Source: a virus
Length of the DNA: 64,000 nucleotides
Strand: one strand, 5' to 3'
Virus record (IMG/VR): IMGVR_UViG_3300042514_001858
Location: 90,168-154,167 of that record
Made by a program: the position numbers and the translations under genes
The notes under the pieces: generated by a model
Database searches by the model: none
What the model was told of the DNA's origin: nothing
What the model saw: the letters and a program-made list of their open reading frames with translations, nothing else
In this document: one piece after another, positions 35,330-46,281 of the stretch
Numbering within the stretch: position 1 is the stretch's first letter
Layout: the number at the start of each line of letters is the position of its first letter

Positions 35330-37594
35330 ATGAGATTGTTTAGCGAAGAGGTAAAAGTTACCTCGTCTAACTCTCCTCTGAACATCCTTCAAGTTAAAGA
35401 TTTTCAAGAAGTCTTTTTCGGTGTTTTCGAGGTGCAGATAAACGAAAAAAAATATGTGGCAGAAAAGATTTCCGAAGAAAACGGAAATCCAATCGTATCT
35501 ATTCTTGTGGAGGAAGGAAACGAGAAAGCACAATATCCTTTCTTACTTCTGAAAGGGAAACAAGAAATTTATTTCAATTCGCAAAGCGAACCAGTTGAAA
35601 TCTTTGAATCAAATATTGAGAATGAAGAAGATGAAGATTTAGAAGTTGAAGAGCTTATCAAAGAAACTTTCGATAATTCTGAAATTGTTGAAGATAAAAA
35701 ACAAGAAATTCTTGAAGAAATAAAAAGAGTAAAGAGAAATGCTGTAAAGAAATCTCTTGAAATTTTAGAACATAATAAAGCAAAAAATATTCAAGATATT
35801 AAGAATGAGAGTAGGAAAAAGGAAAAAGCTCTCAAAGGGTATTTGGAATCAGCAAGAGAAAATCTTGTAGATGAATTTACTATCATTTCTGGAAAAATTA
35901 AAAATGAATTAATTTCAGATAATGATTATAAATTTGATGAGATTCGTGAAAGCATTGATCTTAAAATTCAAGATATTGCTGACAATCTAAATGAATCTCT
36001 TGGAAAGAACTTTGAAAATTCTTCTAAGTTGATTGATAAGTCTGTCAAACAATTAGTCAAAGAATTATATGAAAGAAATATCAACCCGAAAGTTGATAAA
36101 GAATTAAAAGATATTGCTGAAGAAATTGTTGAAAAGGTATCAGAAATTGATAAAAATCTCAACGATAAATTGGATGAAAAAGCTGATGTTTCTTTAATTG
36201 AAAGTGTTAATAAGGAATTGGATGCAATTCGTGATGCCAATATTGAACTTAATAATTCCTTGAACAAAGGTGTCCAAAAAGCCCTCTCTCGTGTAGGAAA
36301 TGTCGATAAGAAAATTTTAGAGATTTCTGAGAAATTTGATAATAAAATCTCAGAAACAGAACAAGAAATCACGCAATATTTCGATGAAAAGTTATCCTTA
36401 GTAAAGGAAGAAACATTAGATATTACAGATGAAGCGAGAAAATATTTTCAAAATCTTATTCAAGAAAGTAGAAATGGATTACTTTCTGAGATTCGTAAAA
36501 TCAAAAATGAAAAGCCAATTGAATATATTTTAGAATCTAAAACAGGGAAACCAATTGTTAAAGAATGGGACTCCATTGAAAAGGATTGGAATAAAAAAAT
36601 TCACGATAAATTTGAAAATTATAAAACCGATTTAAGAAAATATGTAGCTGTTTATGCTTCTGGTGGAGGGACGAATGCCACTCAATACCAAGATGGTGGC
36701 ACGATGAATGGTGATTTGACTATTGTCGGAAAGCTTTCTGCTGGTGATATCTATTCAAATGGTAATAGAGTTGCAACAGTTGTCACTCCTACACGCACTA
36801 CACTATCTGGCAACGGTATATTATCATCGTTTGCCATCGATGGAGCAGAAAGTCTCACTAATCCATCTGCGCTCATTGTCGCTATTGATGGTGCGCTACA
36901 AGAACCATCTGTAGATTACTCTGTTGGCAGCGGAAACATTACCTTTACTTCTCCATTAGCAAGTGGAGCAAAAGCAGTTGTGGTATCTCCTACAAATACT
37001 GTCCAAGTGCTTGATATGATTCCTTCAGATGGGAGTGTGACAAGTGCAAAATTAGCAAGTGGGTTGAGCATTTCTGCGCCTACACTGACCAATGCCGTAA
37101 TAAGTGGGTCTACTACTTTTAGTACATCAGGTGCAGCGACAGCACTAAACACCTCTCTTGGAACGCGAAGAGTCAGGAGAACAACTCTTGCAACAAGAAC
37201 AAGCTCATCTATGGTAGCAGATGACACACTAGTTTTGTCAGTCGTCAGCGGCGTGACATATCGCATTAAAGTTCATTCGCTAACCAAAAATTCAACCGCG
37301 ACAGTTGGGATGGTTTTACGCATTGACCACCCTGGTATCACAGCAAGCGGAAGCGATACCGTAGGTCACTTTACAAACGGTGGCGGCAACTCAACGATTA
37401 CGCCATCAACCTCAACATCGCTGACAAACTCGGTCAACCAGAACGGGCAGAATCTAAGCACAATTTCAGAGGTTATTTTAACACCAACAGCGTCAGGTAA
37501 CGTAACTGTAATGTGGGGGGCGCGTGTTCCTGCTGGTGTAGAAACAGCAGGATTGAACGCTAACAGTTATATGGAAATTACAGAACTAAGTTAA
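35330..37594 (+). CDS. Virion protein: acidic coiled coil fused to a fibre-like C-terminus
   Basis: E/K-rich N-terminal half, GGTMNGDLT junction, IDGALQEP..DY and GSVTSAKLA fibre motifs. Confidence 0.65.
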   Translation: MRLFSEEVKVTSSNSPLNILQVKDFQEVFFGVFEVQINEKKYVAEKISEENGNPIVSILVEEGNEKAQYPFLLLKGKQEIYFNSQSEPVEIFESNIENEEDEDLEVEELIKETFDNSEIVEDKKQEILEEIKRVKRNAVKKSLEILEHNKAKNIQDIKNESRKKEKALKGYLESARENLVDEFTIISGKIKNELISDNDYKFDEIRESIDLKIQDIADNLNESLGKNFENSSKLIDKSVKQLVKELYERNINPKVDKELKDIAEEIVEKVSEIDKNLNDKLDEKADVSLIESVNKELDAIRDANIELNNSLNKGVQKALSRVGNVDKKILEISEKFDNKISETEQEITQYFDEKLSLVKEETLDITDEARKYFQNLIQESRNGLLSEIRKIKNEKPIEYILESKTGKPIVKEWDSIEKDWNKKIHDKFENYKTDLRKYVAVYASGGGTNATQYQDGGTMNGDLTIVGKLSAGDIYSNGNRVATVVTPTRTTLSGNGILSSFAIDGAESLTNPSALIVAIDGALQEPSVDYSVGSGNITFTSPLASGAKAVVVSPTNTVQVLDMIPSDGSVTSAKLASGLSISAPTLTNAVISGSTTFSTSGAATALNTSLGTRRVRRTTLATRTSSSMVADDTLVLSVVSGVTYRIKVHSLTKNSTATVGMVLRIDHPGITASGSDTVGHFTNGGGNSTITPSTSTSLTNSVNQNGQNLSTISEVILTPTASGNVTVMWGARVPAGVETAGLNANSYMEITELS

Positions 37595-37610
37595 TTATTA
37601 TAAATAAAAT

Positions 37611-39659
37611 ATGGCAACAACTAAAATCACATCAAGATCCCTAGAAACTGGAGCAGCATTAGCAAATCTTAATGCTGGTGCAAGTGTGGCATTGACTGTT
37701 CCAGTCACAGCAACTAACTATAATCCAGGAACAAATGTAGCGACATTTTTAGCTACTCCCACAAGTGCAAATTTACTAGCGGCGGTGACAGATGAAACAG
37801 GGACGGGTAGCTTGGTTTTTGCGACATCGCCAACTATCACAACTCCAACAATAGCACAAATCAATGGCGGCATTGCAGCTAACGATGACCTGACTTTGCA
37901 AGGCACAACAAATGCCACACGGACAACGAGCTATGTTAATCTACAACCTAGCGGTGGCAATGTAGGGATCGGCACAGCTACTCCATCAGCGACTCTGCAC
38001 ACAATCGCGCTGACAGAACAAATGCGAATCGGCTATGATGCCGCAAACTACACTAGCCTAACCGTATCAAGTGCTGGCAACGTAACTCGTAACAACACTG
38101 GCACTTTTGTTAGTCAAACGCTCAGTGGCAATCAAGCACTCTATCAAGGGTTCTCAAGTTCTGCGGTGTATATGACTATAGGAGGAACTACCCGTGGTGA
38201 TGGTAGCTTAGGTAAGTTTAACGTATTCGGCACAGGCACTACCAGTGACGCACCTATTTATGTTATCTGGCATACCACAGATGACTCAGCAGGTAAGAAC
38301 GCAGGGCTTATAACTAAGACTAGGATGGGTAGTAGGTATCTTAAAACCTACCAAACAATAGGGCAAAACGATAACTCATTCGGCAATGCTGGGCTTGTTC
38401 AGTTTACTGCATTTGAGTACTCTAACAGCACTTATACCACTCTCGCAACACCAACAGAGTTCACTGGTTGGAACTATCAGTATTACAATGGAGCAGCATA
38501 CGAGTCTTTGCTTGCAGTCAGAAAAGCGGGAGTTGGAGTTGGAGTAGTATCTCCAAACGCTAAAGCGAAGCTGCAAGTTGATTCAACAACACAAGGGTTT
38601 CTTCCCCCGCGCATGGATACAACGCAGCGTAACGCTATTGCATCGCCTCCCGCTGGATTGGTCATCTACAATACAACCACAAGCAATCTCAATTCGTATA
38701 GTGGCTCTGCTTGGGTGGAACTAGTCGATAGTGCTGATCTCGGCACAAACGTAGCGACATTTTTAGCTACTCCCACAAGCGCGAATCTAGCATCGGCACT
38801 CACCGACGAGAACGGAACAGGCGGCGGCTTCGTGCGAGCAGAGGGCGCGACTTTGACGAGTCCATCAATCGCAGGAACGGCATCTTTTACGGATACAACT
38901 CGCCCGACATCGGCAGGAACGGGAACGCCAGCGGCTACATCTCTGATGACAAGAGACGATGTTGCACTAGAGCCTTTTTACAGTCTCGGCAGTGTTTTTC
39001 GCGTATCAGCAACGCCAGCTTTTGCAAATAGCGGCACTGGATCGGCGGCATTACAAGGAACGGGTGACCGATGGGTAGCATTAAGCTCAGGAACTTCTAA
39101 TAGTGGCTATGGCAGAGCGCAAATCGGACGGGGAATCACAACAGTTCCGTCTTATTCAGGCGGTGGCATCAACTTTGCTTCAAAGCTGGGCGTTTCTATT
39201 ATTTTATGGATCGCGAATTCCGCTGCGACTGACACCTTGAACATTTTCAGATTGCGATTCGGGTCAGACAATACTCCTGTTGCTGATGGAGTTGACGCTG
39301 TTGCATATCGCGGATTTGGCGTGGAAATTAAAGCGCGTGGAACCTCGCATGATTGGCGAGTGTACGGACATGACGGAACATCAATAACATACAGTGCATG
39401 GTCAAATACAGGATTGAACGCAAACATATTACAAACTCGAATTTCTTTATCCGTGATGAGCAATGGAAGTGGAACTATTACCGCCAGCCTTGGATCAAAT
39501 GGATCAAGAACATTGTCAACTATAACGACAACTGGAGGTCCCACTGCGACAGGAACTTCCGCGCAATCATACGTTGAAGCGCATGTTGCAAATTCCGCTA
39601 GCGGAGTAACGTCTGTATCTGCCGCGCTTTACGACGCACTCTTTTACGCTCAAACTTAA
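37611..39659 (+). CDS. Tail fibre / receptor-binding protein
   Basis: T/S/G/A-rich; GNVGIGTATP and STTQGFLPPRM..TQRNAIASPPAGLVIYNTT; TATAAATA upstream. Confidence 0.8.
   Translation: MATTKITSRSLETGAALANLNAGASVALTVPVTATNYNPGTNVATFLATPTSANLLAAVTDETGTGSLVFATSPTITTPTIAQINGGIAANDDLTLQGTTNATRTTSYVNLQPSGGNVGIGTATPSATLHTIALTEQMRIGYDAANYTSLTVSSAGNVTRNNTGTFVSQTLSGNQALYQGFSSSAVYMTIGGTTRGDGSLGKFNVFGTGTTSDAPIYVIWHTTDDSAGKNAGLITKTRMGSRYLKTYQTIGQNDNSFGNAGLVQFTAFEYSNSTYTTLATPTEFTGWNYQYYNGAAYESLLAVRKAGVGVGVVSPNAKAKLQVDSTTQGFLPPRMDTTQRNAIASPPAGLVIYNTTTSNLNSYSGSAWVELVDSADLGTNVATFLATPTSANLASALTDENGTGGGFVRAEGATLTSPSIAGTASFTDTTRPTSAGTGTPAATSLMTRDDVALEPFYSLGSVFRVSATPAFANSGTGSAALQGTGDRWVALSSGTSNSGYGRAQIGRGITTVPSYSGGGINFASKLGVSIILWIANSAATDTLNIFRLRFGSDNTPVADGVDAVAYRGFGVEIKARGTSHDWRVYGHDGTSITYSAWSNTGLNANILQTRISLSVMSNGSGTITASLGSNGSRTLSTITTTGGPTATGTSAQSYVEAHVANSASGVTSVSAALYDALFYAQT
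37737..38779 (+). repeat. 29-bp perfect direct repeats 1014 bp apart
   Basis: GTAGCGACATTTTTAGCTACTCCCACAAG at 37737-37765 and 38751-38779. Confidence 0.92.
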
Positions 39660-39683
39660 AACATAATCTTTATTAAAAAACAT

Positions 39684-40115
39684 ATGAACGAACAAATAGA
39701 CGAAGAAATGACATCGCAGGAATATGAAAAATTCCTAACACAACGAGCAATCAAAGGTATCTACCATGCTGTAGTAACCTTTGAGGAATGCTATAGATTA
39801 TTTTGGGGCAGACAACCTGAAACGATCATCGCATCTTTAAACGAAAATGTTCCTAAAACATTAGCACGATTCGCTTCTAATACAGAAATTGGAAATGCTC
39901 TTAATTATCAAATGGCAAAAACAAAACACACTGTGCGTGTGCCTGTTACAATGCCAGAAGGATATGGTTTTGATGGAGAATGTTTTACTTATAACATACC
40001 CGTAGTGGCGACACCTGAACCAGAGATTATCATAGATCTAAATCCAGTTCTAGAGCCACCAGTATTAGATGTCATTGAATCAGAAGTTATTGTCGAAGAG
40101 CCAATGATACAGTAA
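39684..40115 (+). CDS. Hypothetical protein (possible fibre chaperone)
   Basis: 143-aa ORF directly after the fibre gene. Confidence 0.6.
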   Translation: MNEQIDEEMTSQEYEKFLTQRAIKGIYHAVVTFEECYRLFWGRQPETIIASLNENVPKTLARFASNTEIGNALNYQMAKTKHTVRVPVTMPEGYGFDGECFTYNIPVVATPEPEIIIDLNPVLEPPVLDVIESEVIVEEPMIQ

Positions 40116-40576
40116 TGGGTAATCTACCTTTAAAAAAAGATTCGAGATTTAAACAAGGATTTTTTGCCCCTAAAAATCCTCAAAAGTATATTGGTAAATT
40201 GGATAATATAATTTTTCGATCTGGTTTAGAATTGAAATTGTTTCGATGGGCAGATAATAATGTAAATGTTTTGGAATGGAATAGCGAAGAATTTACTATT
40301 CCTTATTTTGATAGTCTTCAAAGGAAAAATCGTAAGTATTTTATTGATGCTTACGTAAAAATAAAAGAAGGAGATAAAATTAAAAAATATCTTATAGAAG
40401 TTAAACCTTGGAAACAGACTCAAGAACCAAAAGCTACTAAAAATAAAAAGAAATCCAATCTGCTTTATGAACAAGTAGCATGGAAGAATAATTGTGATAA
40501 ATGGGCATTTGCCAAAGAATTCGCGAAGAAGCATGGCATGGATTTTATTATTATTACAGAAAAAGAATTAAATTAA
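40115..40576 (+). CDS. gp4: Head completion nuclease
   Basis: PKNPQKYIG, FRSGLE, WNSEE..IPY, YFID, LIEVKP, KWAFA, ITEKEL. Confidence 0.92.
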   Translation: MGNLPLKKDSRFKQGFFAPKNPQKYIGKLDNIIFRSGLELKLFRWADNNVNVLEWNSEEFTIPYFDSLQRKNRKYFIDAYVKIKEGDKIKKYLIEVKPWKQTQEPKATKNKKKSNLLYEQVAWKNNCDKWAFAKEFAKKHGMDFIIITEKELN

Positions 40577-40609
40577 TAGAATTTACAATCATTAAACATA
40601 AATAATATT

Positions 40610-41275
40610 ATGGCGTTGAAACTTAAATTAATCGCAGAAAATCCTGATGTGTTTGATAACTTTGAAGTTATCGAAGAACAATCCAATCGAAACAGTACAT
40701 CCAATCTTTATGTTAAAGGACCGTTCATCGGTTGCAATAGCGTGAATAAAAATAAAAGAATGTATAAACTTGATGATACGAGAACTGAAGTTCAAAGATA
40801 TATCAATGAGATGGTTCTTCCAGGTAGAGCGATGGGTGAGTTGAATCACCCTACTAGTGCTGATGTTAATCTGGAGAGAGCTTGCCATTTGGTAACAGAA
40901 TTGACTGAAGTTAATGATTATTTTGTTGGTAAAGCGAAAGTCTTGTCAACACCTACTGGTCAGATCCTCCGTGCGCTTATCAATGATGGTGTTAAAGTCG
41001 GTATGTCCACTCGTGCATTGGGACAATTGATGGAAAATAATGATTACAATCTAGTTCAAAATATGCACTTGGTAGCTATTGATGCTGTTGCAGATCCATC
41101 TTATCCAAAAGCATTCGTTAATGGTATTTTGGAAAGTAAAACATACGTTGTTGAACAAGACGGTTCTTTTGAAGAAGTATATGAAAATTTTGAAAAGTCT
41201 CTCAAAACTATTCCAAAGCATGATATTGAATCTTATCTTCGTAAACAAATCATAAAATTCATTAATTCTATTTGA
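40610..41275 (+). CDS. gp21: Prohead protease
   Basis: NKNKRMY, AMGELNHP, GKAKVLSTPTG, GMSTRALG, DAVADPS. Confidence 0.95.
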   Translation: MALKLKLIAENPDVFDNFEVIEEQSNRNSTSNLYVKGPFIGCNSVNKNKRMYKLDDTRTEVQRYINEMVLPGRAMGELNHPTSADVNLERACHLVTELTEVNDYFVGKAKVLSTPTGQILRALINDGVKVGMSTRALGQLMENNDYNLVQNMHLVAIDAVADPSYPKAFVNGILESKTYVVEQDGSFEEVYENFEKSLKTIPKHDIESYLRKQIIKFINSI

Positions 41276-41277
41276 TA

Positions 41278-41949
41278 ATGAAAAAGCTACCTTTCTGGAA
41301 ATTTAGAAAATGGTTTTCTGATAAAGGGAAAATTGGAGAATTTTTCGCTGATCCTATATCACAACCAGAATTTCTAACTAGGTTAAAATGGTTGTCCGAA
41401 GGTTCTTTGGAATATCATCTATCTAAATTTACATCACCATGGACACATGGTGGAATTCCAGAAGAAAAACAACTTTATAAAGAATTTGAAGAATACGTGA
41501 TAAATAATAATATGGGTAAAACATTCAAAGATATGAAAAAAGACGGTAAAGTTACTTTTGATGGTCCTAAAGTAAAAGACCGCAAACCATTTGCACCTGG
41601 CACTCAGAAACATAAAGCCAAAAAAGGTAAAGGTTCTTATGATCGTAAACCACCTGAAGAAGATGCTGAATTTAAAAAAGGTGAAACGAGCGAAGCGAAA
41701 AAAGATAGTCTGAGGCGTATGCGCGAAGAAAATAAAGGTAAAAAATTACCTCCTCCACAAAAAATGGAAATGAAAGGAGGACTTCAGAAAAAACTTAAAG
41801 AAACACTCGGAGAATCAGCATCTATCATCAAATTTATTGAAGCTATCATGACTGAAGACCATGCAAATGCTCATAAATATCTGAAAGATACCATCAATAA
41901 AAAGATTCAGGAGAAAATTTCTCAAGAAATTGAAAAACCTTTGTTCTAA
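41278..41949 (+). CDS. Prohead core gp67-like protein with an internal late start at 41512 and an ArfA-like motif
   Basis: C-terminal FIEAIMTEDHANAHKYL resembles T4 gp67; KKGKGSYDRK; TAAATA 41501-41506, 5 nt before ATG 41512. Confidence 0.6.
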   Translation: MKKLPFWKFRKWFSDKGKIGEFFADPISQPEFLTRLKWLSEGSLEYHLSKFTSPWTHGGIPEEKQLYKEFEEYVINNNMGKTFKDMKKDGKVTFDGPKVKDRKPFAPGTQKHKAKKGKGSYDRKPPEEDAEFKKGETSEAKKDSLRRMREENKGKKLPPPQKMEMKGGLQKKLKETLGESASIIKFIEAIMTEDHANAHKYLKDTINKKIQEKISQEIEKPLF

Positions 41950-41986
41950 AACATAAAAAAGTTATATCAAATCTCTAAATAATATT

Positions 41987-42871
41987 ATGAAGAAAAACAA
42001 ACAGAATCTTTTCTCTGAAGACGTTCAAAAAAGTCTCGGTCTTTCCGACGAATCCGTTAGTGCTATCCAAAAAGCATTGGAAGCTAAAGTAGATCTTGCA
42101 GTTGAAGCTGCATTGGTTGAACAGGATGAAGTGTATGCTACTAAATTGGGATCGGTCATGGAATCGCTCGATAAAGATCGCACCATCAAAATGAAAAAAT
42201 TGATGGAAGCTTTTGATAAAGATAAGACTACCAAATTAGTTAAAGTTGTTAAGAAATACGAAAGAGAACAGCAAGTTGATCTAATTAGATTTAAAAAACA
42301 ACTCACTGAATCTGTTAGTGCCTATTTGGAAGAATTTTTGAGTGAATCCATTCCTGCTAAAGATATTGAGCAAGCAGTTAAGAATAAAACCGCTATGAAC
42401 GTGTTGGGAAATCTCCGCAAAGTGTTTGCAATTGATTCTGCTATCATGAAAGAATCTGTGTCCGATGCAATTCTACAAGGTAAAAATGAATTGGATAAAC
42501 TTCGTAATGAGAACGCTTCTTTGAAGAGCAATCTCAAAGTTATCACTGAAGAGAAAAATAACACACAAGTTAAACTCTTCCTCGAAGGTAAAACTTCCAA
42601 GTATCCTGAATCTAAAAAGAACTTCATCAAGAAAGCTCTTGGCGATAAATCCCTTACCTTTATCAAAGAAAATTTCGATTACACCGTGCGTCTCTTTGAA
42701 AAACAAGAGAAAAAACAACTTGAAGTAATCAAGGAAGAAGCTCTCCAAAACCGTAAACATAAGCCAGATTTCGTGAAAAATCAAAAAATTATCACGGAAC
42801 AAGTAAGTAATGATGTAGAGGAGAATGATCCTTATCTGAGTGTCCTTCAAACGATGGAATTCAGAAGATAA
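41987..42871 (+). CDS. gp22: Prohead core scaffolding protein
   Basis: Coiled coil with multiple xxES sites; lies between gp21 and gp23. Confidence 0.85.
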   Translation: MKKNKQNLFSEDVQKSLGLSDESVSAIQKALEAKVDLAVEAALVEQDEVYATKLGSVMESLDKDRTIKMKKLMEAFDKDKTTKLVKVVKKYEREQQVDLIRFKKQLTESVSAYLEEFLSESIPAKDIEQAVKNKTAMNVLGNLRKVFAIDSAIMKESVSDAILQGKNELDKLRNENASLKSNLKVITEEKNNTQVKLFLEGKTSKYPESKKNFIKKALGDKSLTFIKENFDYTVRLFEKQEKKQLEVIKEEALQNRKHKPDFVKNQKIITEQVSNDVEENDPYLSVLQTMEFRR

Positions 42872-42933
42872 TTTCCACCCCGCACTATGAGGAATTAATT
42901 CCTGAACAAATGTGAATAGAAAATCAAATATAT

Positions 42934-44385
42934 ATGAATATCCCACAAACTGATTTAAATGGCTCAAAAATGCAACGCGCAGTCGCTAAATGGCGTAAAG
43001 TGCTGGACTATAGCTCGAACTCGATTCCTGCTATCCAGAACGAACACGTCTATAAGACAACCGCTATGCTGCTTGAGAACCAAGAACAGTGGTGCTTTCA
43101 AGAATCAAACAACGCTGGTAGTAACGGCGTTTTTGGCGCAACGTCTTCCATTGGCAATGGTATCGCTAACAGCGACTCCTATGCTGCTGGTGATGCTCGT
43201 TTGCCAAAGATTCTGATTCCTATGATTAGACGTACTTTCCCAGAATTGATTTCTAATGAAATCGTCGGTGTCCAGCCAATGGGCGGTCCTGTCGGACTCG
43301 CCTTCGCTCTCCGTTATGCTTATCAAGGCGAAACCCTTGGTGCAGACGGTGTTGATGGCAAAGCATTCACCTCTACTTCCCGTGGCAACCAGCCTTGGGA
43401 TCAGTATGCAGGTGGTACAGGTCTTCCGAACGACGAAATGGGCTATCAATTACTGGACACACGTTTCACTGGCACATCTGCTGGTTTCCTCTCTGGTCAT
43501 GCTGAGTGGACATTCGCAGATCAAGACCGTGGTATTGCTGAACTATTGAGTAATTACGAATTGACAGGTAAAATCCCTCAAATCGAACTCAAGTTTGACA
43601 AAACTGCTGTTGAAGCTGGGACACGTAGACTTGCAACTCGTTGGAGTGTTGAGTTGGAACAAGACATCAAAAACATGAACGGCATCGATATCGATGGAGA
43701 ACTTACGAATGCTATGTCGTATGAGATCCAAGCTGAAATCGACCGTGAAGTTGTGATGCGTATGATCCAAACAGCCTTTAATGCTGGTGCTGGCGCAGGT
43801 TTCTCCATCTGGAGTCCTGTTAGTGCGGATGGTCGTTGGACTGCTGAAAGAAATATTACCTTCTATCAACGCCTTATTATCGAAAGTGGTCGTATGGCTG
43901 CTCGTAACCGTAGAGGTGCCGCTAACTTTGTTATCGCCACTCCTCGCGTTTGCAGCATCCTCGAAATGCTTCCTGACTTTAAGGTTTACGAAATCAACGG
44001 AACCGTTTCGACGGCTGGTGTTGGTATCGCAAAAGTTGGTACTGTTGGTAGCCGCTGGACGGTTTATCGTGATACTCGGACTGAAGTTCAGAACACTTCA
44101 CTCTATAGCCCTAACTACTACTCTGGTCAAACCAGCGGTGTAGAATATGCGCTATTGGGTTACAAAGGTTCTGAATACTATGACACAGGTATTATTTACT
44201 GCCCATACATCCCGATTATGGTGCAACGCACAATTGGACCGAATGATTTCGCTCCTCGCGTTGGACTCATGACCCGTTATGGTATTGTAAACAATATCTT
44301 CGGTGCTAATCTTTATTATCACCTGATCATTGTCAAAGGTCTTGGTACTGCGTTTACACCTGGTTCTGTTAGCACTTACCTGTAA
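42934..44385 (+). CDS. gp23: Major capsid protein
   Basis: TAMLLENQE, IRRTFP, VGVQPM.GPVGLAFALR, EIQAEIDRE, YCPYIP, GLMTRYG. Confidence 0.97.
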   Translation: MNIPQTDLNGSKMQRAVAKWRKVLDYSSNSIPAIQNEHVYKTTAMLLENQEQWCFQESNNAGSNGVFGATSSIGNGIANSDSYAAGDARLPKILIPMIRRTFPELISNEIVGVQPMGGPVGLAFALRYAYQGETLGADGVDGKAFTSTSRGNQPWDQYAGGTGLPNDEMGYQLLDTRFTGTSAGFLSGHAEWTFADQDRGIAELLSNYELTGKIPQIELKFDKTAVEAGTRRLATRWSVELEQDIKNMNGIDIDGELTNAMSYEIQAEIDREVVMRMIQTAFNAGAGAGFSIWSPVSADGRWTAERNITFYQRLIIESGRMAARNRRGAANFVIATPRVCSILEMLPDFKVYEINGTVSTAGVGIAKVGTVGSRWTVYRDTRTEVQNTSLYSPNYYSGQTSGVEYALLGYKGSEYYDTGIIYCPYIPIMVQRTIGPNDFAPRVGLMTRYGIVNNIFGANLYYHLIIVKGLGTAFTPGSVSTYL

Positions 44386-44416
44386 GTCTAATTTAGCAGA
44401 CACGCTGAACAAATTT

Positions 44417-44448
44417 GAAACCCGATGCACCGAAGAGCATCGGGTTTC
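44417..44448 (+). terminator. Stem-loop after gp23
   Basis: GAAACCCGATGC-N8-GCATCGGGTTTC, 12-bp stem. Confidence 0.75.
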
Positions 44449-44473
44449 CTCGTTTATACGTTAAATAATATCA

Positions 44474-44998
44474 ATGCAATTATTCAATCAATTTTTCCAA
44501 ATCCACGAAAGTCTTGATAATCCATACCCTTGGAAGAATACGTTCAAAACCGAAGAAGTCGTAGATGATTGGGATGATAGTGGAGATGAATATCCCAAAG
44601 ATGTTCTTACACCAACTCAAATAATACATTTCAAAACAGATGAAGGTGTTCCATACATTTGGTATGCAAAGCAAAATAGATACAACGATAAATATTGGGA
44701 AATTGCATTCGGGATTGTTGAAAAAGATAAAGGAGATGGTGGCTATGAAACAAATATTGAAAAAACGGGAACAGGCAATGCATTTCGTGTATTCGCTACA
44801 GTAATTGAAATTACAAATTATTTCGTGGAATGGGATGGAGATAATTATGAAGTTCAAAATTTAACCTTTTCATCTAAAGGTAATAACCGAACATCTCTTT
44901 ATAAAAAATATCTAGTTCCCCGAATTGAAAATTTTGAAATATCTGATGAACAGAAAAATGGTGATGAAACAGAAATCCATCTTCAACGTAATTTCTAA
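44474..44998 (+). CDS. Late hypothetical protein, candidate internal head protein
   Basis: TAAATA-N6-ATG; leader MQLFNQFFQIHES; TGTGNAFRVFATV. Confidence 0.75.
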   Translation: MQLFNQFFQIHESLDNPYPWKNTFKTEEVVDDWDDSGDEYPKDVLTPTQIIHFKTDEGVPYIWYAKQNRYNDKYWEIAFGIVEKDKGDGGYETNIEKTGTGNAFRVFATVIEITNYFVEWDGDNYEVQNLTFSSKGNNRTSLYKKYLVPRIENFEISDEQKNGDETEIHLQRNF

Positions 44999-45026
44999 AA
45001 TTTGATCAATTTTGCTAAATAATAAT

Positions 45027-45479
45027 ATGAGCATTTTTACGTTCCAACAAAACCTTCTTTCCGCTGAAAAAACTGGTAATCCTAATCTTACCAATACTAC
45101 ACTCTCCGCAACAGGTGTCACATTCCTATCTGGTGCTAACGTAGTTGTTGCAACTAGACAATTAGGTGTGGTATCTCTGTCCACTACTGATGTGGGTATT
45201 GCATTCGATCCTGTTGAATTTTCAGTAGGCTCTACAGTTAATACCGCATCTGCATTCTCCCTTGCTGCTTATCCAAGTGTCACGGTAAATGTTCTTGGTT
45301 CAAGATTTAATATTCCAGCATCGCTTCACAATACTCAAATGGCTATCGTGAATACTGATAATTCATATTCTGTGTTCCCATTCCTGAGTTCTGTCACGAC
45401 TGTTCCAACATCAGCATTCTCAGAAACCTTCTCTGTATCTACCCCTGATGCTCGTAGAAAGAGATTGCTAGGATATTAA
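45027..45479 (+). CDS. Ser/Thr-rich late virion protein (decoration candidate)
   Basis: TAAATA 45016-45021, 5 nt before ATG 45027; beta-rich composition. Confidence 0.65.
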   Translation: MSIFTFQQNLLSAEKTGNPNLTNTTLSATGVTFLSGANVVVATRQLGVVSLSTTDVGIAFDPVEFSVGSTVNTASAFSLAAYPSVTVNVLGSRFNIPASLHNTQMAIVNTDNSYSVFPFLSSVTTVPTSAFSETFSVSTPDARRKRLLGY

Positions 45480-45512
45480 TAATAAGATACTTTTAATCTT
45501 TATTGGTATATG

Positions 45513-45540
45513 AAAGCACACGGTTGATTCGTGTGCTTTT
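45513..45540 (+). terminator. Rho-independent terminator
   Basis: AAAGCACACG-N7-CGTGTGCTTTT. Confidence 0.7.
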
Positions 45541-45555
45541 CTCTTAAATAGTAAT

Positions 45556-46281
45556 ATGTATAATAGGGGAAGTGGTTCAGGCGCAGAATCCAAAAGAACT
45601 GACGAATCATTTTATAGTGGTATTGTCGTGAAGAACGATGATCCTTTGAAATTGAATAGAGTAAAAATTTATATTCCCGAATTATCTAACCAACCTTTTG
45701 ACAATTGGTTGGAAGAATACGATGAAATCAATGTTAAAATGGCAGGTGTCAATAATCCAACTGATAATTGGAACGACATTGCAATATTTAAAGAAATAGC
45801 CAATAACCTCCCATGGGCAGACCCATGCTACCCAATAATCGGTGAATCGGGAAATGCTCGATATTACCAAAACGATGAAGATAGTATTTCAACTATTTCT
45901 GATTGTAATTATGAAGAAGGGTTTCAAGTGAATGATGAAGAACCCCCAACATTACAAACGGGATCATTCTCACCAGCATTTATCTATGAAAACAAAGATA
46001 CCATTATGGGAGACGCTTTCAATAAACCAATTGATGTATTCTCTGTGAAGTGTAATACATATTCATTTGGTTACAAATCACAAAAATTTAGTAATAAAAC
46101 AAAGGGTATAATCGGTGTTCCTGAAGTTGGTTCTAAAGTATGGGTATTCCATTACATGGGAGATTTAAATTTCCCTGTTTATTTTGGTGTTATACAAGAT
46201 TACAGAAGCCTTACACTTATCAATAGAACTGATAATGAATCCAACATTTCTCCTTATTACCCATCTGACTTCGAAAATTAA
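45556..46281 (+). CDS. Baseplate hub gp5/VgrG N-terminal OB-fold protein
   Basis: GIVVKNDDP..LNRVKIYIP, WADPC, VPEVGSKVWVF..GDLNFPVYFG. Confidence 0.8.
   Translation: MYNRGSGSGAESKRTDESFYSGIVVKNDDPLKLNRVKIYIPELSNQPFDNWLEEYDEINVKMAGVNNPTDNWNDIAIFKEIANNLPWADPCYPIIGESGNARYYQNDEDSISTISDCNYEEGFQVNDEEPPTLQTGSFSPAFIYENKDTIMGDAFNKPIDVFSVKCNTYSFGYKSQKFSNKTKGIIGVPEVGSKVWVFHYMGDLNFPVYFGVIQDYRSLTLINRTDNESNISPYYPSDFEN

Follow-up and report, generated by a model that had tools for sequence, protein, structure and literature searches.

In a far-T4-like myovirus, an uncultured freshwater phage, an open frame coding for 223 residues (41278-41949, plus strand) separates the prohead maturation protease gene from the scaffold gene. 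The DNA analysed, here called the window, is a stretch of 64,000 nucleotides and part of a 154-kb IMG/VR contig; near-identical DNA is present in many lake-water metagenomes. The nearest cultured phages are cyanomyophages, with whose gp23 the major capsid protein of the window shares 33% identity. No tRNA gene was found in the window.

The head module and two starts in one frame

A gp4-like head-completion protein is encoded at 40115-40576. It is followed, all on the plus strand, by the prohead maturation protease of the T4 gp21 type (S77; 40610..41275; Pfam Peptidase_S77, 1.4e-28; phrog_207, 4.6e-53), the frame under study, a gene in the position of the gp22 scaffold (41987..42871) and the gp23-type major capsid protein, MCP (42934..44385; Pfam Gp23, 1.7e-83). 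The gene in scaffold position has no match in Pfam; its place before the MCP gene is conserved in relatives. The order protease, X, scaffold, MCP is found in the window and at five relative loci, and X stays between protease and scaffold across relatives of 45-98% identity.

Sequence searches with X itself yield little. No match among 50,697 phage records was obtained by megablast with 40600-44400 or by tblastn with the 223-residue protein; PHROGs and NCBIfam yielded nothing for the same protein, nor did phmmer against the PDB for its shorter product of 145 residues. A protein atlas offered no usable feature match, and structural matches to the conserved part all had a TM below 0.3. In the literature, no paper was found on the family or on its architecture of gp67-like part plus ArfA tail.

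Within the frame lies a late-promoter-like start motif, TAAATA-N5-ATG (TAAATAATAATATG; 41501..41514, plus strand), with an in-frame ATG at 41512. The first-pass annotation had noted it and had taken it for an internal start. The motif is certainly there and is in good company: the window contains 24 copies of TAAATA-N5-ATG, while 2.3 are expected, and this tenfold enrichment was reached by no shuffle. The sites are spread over positions 6058-62364 (examples are 40599-40612, 41976-41989 and 45016-45029), and 23 of the 24 start an open reading frame of at least 59 residues. The one at 41512 is the only one with a long in-frame frame upstream. In the form TAAATAATATTATG the motif precedes the protease gene (40599-40612) and also the scaffold gene (41976-41989). 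Variants are seen as well: the MCP gene starts with CAAATA-N5-ATG, and at 44474 and 37611 TAAATA stands at N6 and N4, respectively.

It is the secondary status of the start that did not survive. At three relative loci (L004, L005, L009) the gene directly follows the protease gene, the orthologous start is preceded by the same TAAATA-N5 motif, and the stop codon of the protease serves as the first three nucleotides of that motif. Because the gene starts there, behind protease and motif, 41512 is by all appearances the canonical start of a conserved gene of 145 residues. Its relatives mostly comprise 123-180 residues and begin with Met-Gly at the equivalent of Met79. Of the fused relatives, two had their DNA read (L006 and L008), and both retain the internal TAAATA box, with an N8 spacer.

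The 78 codons upstream (41278..41511, plus strand) have a history of their own, as far as the sequences tell. Their ATG lies 2 nt past the protease stop (TGAtaATG), they lack a stop codon, and the frame simply continues into the 145-residue gene. Stand-alone homologues of residues 1-78 have 68-92 residues and end exactly at the junction point; some of these have other genes as neighbours (L007). At the three loci just mentioned, no such domain separates the protease from the 145-residue gene; in P0008, P0010, P0015, P0020 and P0057 it is fused to that gene. We consider it a small-gene family in its own right that one sublineage has joined in frame to the 145-residue gene. AF2 models it as a helical bundle (pLDDT 85, pTM 0.75), for which Foldseek (E > 6) and VIA-align (best Z 4.7) revealed no assignable fold.

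Members of this add-on family are about 70 residues long and share a conserved core, Trp-Leu-Ser-Glu-Gly-Ser-Leu-x-Tyr-His (41278-41511; P0067, P0076, P0083, P0089 and others). Some stand alone, others have additional C-terminal domains, and still others are joined to the 145-residue gene. In P0067, one of those that stand alone, the protein opens with a Phe-rich leader resembling the capsid targeting sequence of T4 and ending in Glu.

That two isoforms are possible had been suggested before, and indeed both are to be expected from the sequence. The add-on would be translated by coupling to the protease gene; being so coupled and lacking its own stop, it would yield the 223-residue isoform by read-through translation on transcripts from the protease promoter. 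The 145-residue isoform would result from the gene's own TAAATA-N5-ATG start. Late promoters of T4 carry TATAAATA at -13 to -6 (PMC1524935). Applied to TAAATA-N5-ATG, this geometry makes the A of the ATG position +1, and the late mRNAs of the phage appear to be leaderless, if the geometry holds. A Shine-Dalgarno sequence is not recognisable in the 40 nt upstream of 11 gene starts of the head module (window 37571-45556); probably, the host does not rely on Shine-Dalgarno pairing.

Anatomy of the 145-residue protein

The short isoform (41512..41949, plus strand; 145 residues, 16.6 kDa, pI 9.8) has more than 100 homologues, which were gathered by two large protein searches. It is composed of three parts, all encoded on the plus strand. 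The first is a basic N-module of 48 residues (residues 79-126; 41512..41655; pI 10.3), for which AF2 predicts coil. Several of its positions are nearly invariant, and the first 29 residues are conserved, too. The second is a variable linker (residues 127-179; 41656..41814) made of an acidic patch and a charged helix and ending at L-G-E|S; its length and content differ widely among relatives, from a few residues up to whole extra modules. The third, and best conserved, part is a C-terminal helical hairpin of 44 residues (180-223; 41815..41946), which resembles gp67 and ends with Pro-Leu-Phe. In the AF2 model its helices comprise residues 181-191 and 195-219 (pLDDT 81-91).

The hairpin was found in 101 family members. 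What stands in front of it is basic, predicted to be disordered, and modular: different modules are swapped before the same hairpin. Among P0014-P0116 one finds a DUF3008-like head, a basic module with a conserved His-Pro-Lys start, a Cys-Trp-x-Gly-Tyr ... Asn-Cys-Val motif and repeated Gly-x-Val-Pro-Leu-Lys/Arg units, often with acidic Glu-Asp-Glu-Gln-Ser linkers between the modules.

The tetrapeptide L-G-E-S (residues 177-180; 41806-41817), which had already been pointed out downstream of the basic motif, is located precisely at the border between linker and hairpin. Glu179 is invariant and Ser180 nearly so (at least 90%) in 36 aligned relatives; among 94 distinct sequences, hardly any lacks a hydrophobic residue at P3. 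The protease gp21 of T4 cuts core and internal proteins after L/I-x-E (PMC9026906). L-G-E|S fits this hydrophobic-x-Glu rule and is a candidate protease site.

The ArfA-like tract

The last 17 residues of the N-module (41605-41655, plus strand) form a tract that is reminiscent of the bacterial ribosome-rescue factor ArfA. Its centre is KKGKGSYDRK (residues 115-124; 41620-41649), which, as the first-pass annotation had stated, is embedded in a basic segment. Structural work has placed the ArfA segment with the KGKGS motif in the empty mRNA channel (PMC6299226; PMC8012679).

How far does the likeness go? The Pfam model of ArfA (PF03889), the use of which had been proposed as a check, gave a divided answer: it matches residues 111-124 with an E of 0.0011, and its 18.8 bits stay below the cut-off of 25.5 bits. 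The match covers profile positions 27-40 of 44, whereas E. coli ArfA reaches 89.5 bits over positions 2-43. The same model recognises 29 of 36 relatives (E < 0.01), in every case on profile positions 25-42 alone; some of them score 26-29.5 bits on these positions, the latter value being the best, and so exceed the cut-off. When a profile of 74 N-modules was compared with an ArfA alignment by hhalign, a probability of 94.5% (E 7.6e-8) was obtained over 17 columns, which correspond to ArfA 28-44; the search seeded with E. coli ArfA had 120 matches listed, of 80-100% identity, which makes for a shallow profile. The best 15-mer shares 10 of 15 residues with E. coli ArfA in the protein of the window and 12 of 15 in the relative P0029. 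Out of 3000 composition-preserving shuffles none reached the observed identity, the maximum being 8-9 of 15. The shuffle test and the family-wide conservation led us to reject a chance origin of the motif. The likeness to ArfA, then, is real at the level of sequence and goes beyond composition, and it is local.

Nothing in the protein aligns with residues 1-27 of ArfA, or positions 1-24 of the profile. This front half is known as the part of ArfA that recruits RF2. Because it is absent, the protein does not belong to the ArfA family; what it carries is the ArfA channel tail of 17 residues. Automatic annotations label single family members "ArfA" or "ribosomal protein S21"; neither label is right.

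Of the 101 hairpin-bearing relatives, 72 have retained a strict loop, G-[KR]-G-[SA]-aromatic. Within these 72, a set picked for carrying the loop, there is no variation in the loop Lys, the Ser or the Arg that stands two residues further downstream. The remaining 29 (about 28%) have a residue altered, three to four residues deleted or the module missing altogether, so the fusion of tract and hairpin is common in relatives and yet not universal. With the hairpin in all 101 and the loop in 72, the hairpin presents itself as the constant of the family and the ArfA-like tract as a common but dispensable cargo element. Where the loop is present, the positional rigidity of G-K-G-S-aromatic-x-R points to one defined partner rather than to bulk charge.

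The comparison with the known rescue factors reveals both similarities and differences. With E. coli ArfA (YhdL; PF03889; PDB 5MDV, 5U4I, 5H5U, 5MGP) the phage protein has the tail 28-44 in common. The phage tract, however, is embedded in a head-module protein of 145 or 223 residues and is followed by an acidic run, where ArfA stays basic. Stand-alone ArfA-like peptides of phages, such as gp30 of the Pelagibacter phage HTVC027P (PMC12753301), and ArfT of Francisella are likewise short and basic with a Lys/Gly tail; unlike the tract discussed here, they are free proteins of 40-60 residues encoded outside the head module. The gp30 of HTVC027P, named ArfA in a 2025 paper (PMC12753301), has 58 residues (L010 15768-15944), is encoded upstream of the small terminase gene, has a Lys-Lys-Gly-Arg-Gly-Ser-Phe tail and scores 20.2 bits on the Pfam ArfA model, i.e., below the cut-off.

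Could the protein, then, act on ribosomes? One might think of a cytoplasmic, ArfA-like rescue factor that works uncleaved late in infection, its place in the head module being incidental. Other phages do express stand-alone ArfA-like genes, and the promoter-like start of the gene would suggest high late expression. The tract, however, is almost always tied to the hairpin (the only stand-alone forms found are two short ones that look truncated), the hairpin and not the tract is invariant in the family, and the RF-recruiting half of ArfA is missing. We hold this possibility to be very improbable.

The alternative is a ribosome binder that travels in the virion. It would be loaded into the head via its gp67-like helix, freed by the protease and ejected with the DNA; its tail would dock in the mRNA entry channel and rescue or block ribosomes at the onset of infection. 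The tract matches just the segment of ArfA that occupies the mRNA channel, in the best case with the 12 identities mentioned and at the same conserved positions; in length the N-module is similar to the known Arf factors, and the 29 conserved residues at its beginning could be a partner-recruiting half. Phages are known to carry stand-alone ArfA-like genes, as HTVC027P does (PMC12753301), and in T4, proteins ejected from the head act on the host (PMC9026906). There are objections, too. The RF2-recruiting positions of the ArfA profile are unmatched, more than a quarter of the relatives do without an intact loop, and the acidic run behind the tract is foreign to ArfA. A plug in the channel would block the phage's own mRNAs, too, and in T4 the fragments of core proteins mostly leave the head (PMC9026906). 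Taking both sides together, we rate ribosome binding by the tract as possible but rather doubtful, and the entire chain from loading to a rescued or blocked ribosome as unlikely. The same must be said, with some more emphasis, of its most specific version, in which the ArfA-tail peptide of about 48 residues would enter the capsid via the hairpin, be set free by the protease, leave together with the DNA and dock in the mRNA channel of host ribosomes within the first seconds of infection.

The hairpin and a proposed role in the prohead core

The second likeness claimed by the first-pass annotation was that of the C-terminal domain to gp67 of T4. It can be recovered with profiles and is lost with simpler means. 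By hhalign, the hairpin matches a gp67 profile with 68% probability (E 4.7e-5) over 32 columns; family columns 13-44 are aligned with gp67 residues 2-33, including a shared I-E-A-I core. The profile consisted of 10 sequences from diverse Straboviridae (9 diverse phage records were used) and replaced one derived from a search seeded with T4 gp67, the 120 listed matches of which were 80-100% identical and made the profile shallow. Against T4 gp67 alone, the probability falls to 13.7%. BLASTP of the C-terminus produced no alignment with T4 gp67, Pfam and PHROG searches of the protein no match to gp67, and hhalign against T4 gp68 found nothing. The resemblance to gp67 is weak, exists at the profile level only, and we do not claim membership. 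The model of canonical gp67 (PF17634) has no match at E ≤ 10 anywhere in the 154-kb contig.

In view of so weak a link one may suspect a small basic regulator that binds DNA or RNA and merely happens to reside in a late operon, the likenesses to gp67 and ArfA being functionally meaningless. Basic tracts rich in Lys and Gly are, after all, common. Yet the place between protease and scaffold is fixed over the whole range of relatives, the conserved Glu-Ser site fits the rule of the protease, and no shuffle attained the match to ArfA. Such a regulator is hardly probable.

T4 gp67 (PIP; PF17634; phrog_1064) is, like the protein discussed here, small and encoded beside the prohead protease. It has an amphipathic helix with an I-E-A-I core directly behind a hydrophobic-x-Glu site, to which the phage protein may have a counterpart; the core follows L-I-E in gp67 and F-I-E in the phage protein, where it lies ten residues behind the Glu-Ser site. 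The arrangement is turned around, however: the core-type helix is N-terminal in gp67 and C-terminal here. Also, the acidic C-terminal tail of gp67 is absent; the protein ends with Pro-Leu-Phe right after the hairpin and has a basic N-terminal arm instead. The gene order differs as well, 21-X-22-23 versus 20-67-68-21-22-23 in T4, which means that the gene follows the protease here, while the gene of gp67 follows the portal.

The internal proteins IPI-III and Alt of T4, which have a capsid targeting sequence, offer a second comparison. They combine basic cargo with a short core-binding element and a protease site between the two, as the phage protein would. Their targeting element is an N-terminal leader of 10 residues; in the phage protein a C-terminal gp67-like hairpin would take its place. 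In T4 such cargo is ejected into the host (PMC9026906). The fate of such cleavage products differs in T4: the small fragments of core proteins, including those of gp67, mostly leave the head, but internal proteins stay in it until they are ejected, and head proteins act on the host (PMC9026906).

From all this we infer that the gene 41512-41949 encodes a prohead-core, or scaffold-accessory, protein of the T4 gp67/PIP kind with a basic cargo that is released by the protease, a reading that we consider probable, though with considerable reserve. A core-binding role of the gp67 type is the best reading because of the hhalign match and the position next to the protease. It is consistent with the synteny of the head module in the window and the five relative loci, with a conserved helical hairpin behind an invariant Glu with hydrophobic P3, with a contig that is devoid of canonical gp67, and with the T4 precedent of core and internal proteins cut after L/I-x-E. 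The modular basic cargo, the ArfA tract and the start motif also find a place in it. Several points speak against it: neither HMMs nor BLAST connect the protein with gp67 or gp68, and the 68% refer to a single helix; the gene order departs from that of T4, and the acidic tail of gp67 is lacking. Further, a candidate site in the MCP of the window, F-Q-E|S, fails to align with the L-T-E|A site of T4, an alignment that had been expected beforehand. Finally, the strict loop positions argue for a specific partner rather than generic charge, and this partner might be the ribosome. A complex prediction of scaffold and C-terminal hairpin scored 0.01, which is no answer in either direction.

As a prohead-core protein, the gene product would be taken into the scaffolding core and anchored there by its hairpin. 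The neighbouring S77 protease would cut after Glu179, at hydrophobic-x-Glu|Ser, and probably a second time at F-I-E|A. Cleavage would free an N-terminal cargo of 11.5 kDa with a pI of 10, which is predicted to be largely disordered. In size and charge it is comparable to the internal proteins of T4, and like them this basic polypeptide may stay with the nucleic acid. The cargo would consist of modules swapped between relatives, and the 48-residue module would end in a 17-residue copy of the mRNA-channel tail of ArfA, presumably a loop that is sequence-specific and binds to the backbone of a nucleic acid. Most likely, this tail was borrowed from stand-alone ArfA-like genes of phages. As to the target of the tract, DNA or the core would account for about half of our expectation, the ribosome for a smaller share and anything else for the smallest. 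The original interpretation of the locus is partly supported, namely in the ArfA-type tract, its fusion to a gp67-like helix behind a conserved site and next to the protease, and the two expected isoforms; a ribosome-binding peptide that is carried into the prohead, released by gp21 and injected would go beyond this.

Phages are known to package proteins that act on the host upon injection: Alt of T4 affects transcription and IPI* restriction. We know of no packaged phage protein that acts on the ribosome at injection. If the ArfA-type tail binds ribosomes, the protein would be the first translation factor delivered by a virion, and a ribosome-docking module of just 17 residues would move between free rescue factors and structural proteins. 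Such an effector would carry the greatest weight where a phage with apparently leaderless late mRNAs infects tiny freshwater cells that contain few ribosomes. Regardless of the ribosome, the family would define a gp67-like targeting hairpin at the C-terminus, in front of which N-terminal cargo modules are freely exchanged. It helps to read the "cargo" genes in the heads of many uncultured T4-like phages and corrects the two automatic labels mentioned above.

Some observations on the surroundings may be added. The frame behind the MCP gene (window 44474-44998) has a Phe-rich leader ending in Ile-His-Glu|Ser, which resembles the capsid-targeting sequence of T4; its Glu|Ser site is the same as in the 145-residue gene. 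Contigs from four riverine metatranscriptome runs resemble the scaffold gene and the MCP gene to 90-99% (window 41961-44406); they span MCP and scaffold of relatives, not 41057-41960. Given this degree of likeness, relatives of the phage occur in rivers, the libraries containing their RNA or DNA. A DUF723 gene (PF05265) of about 490 codons is present in the head modules of L004 (3820-5280) and L006 (4418-5911). Its insertion point differs between the two loci, the window has no insert at either place, and the gene looks like a mobile one.
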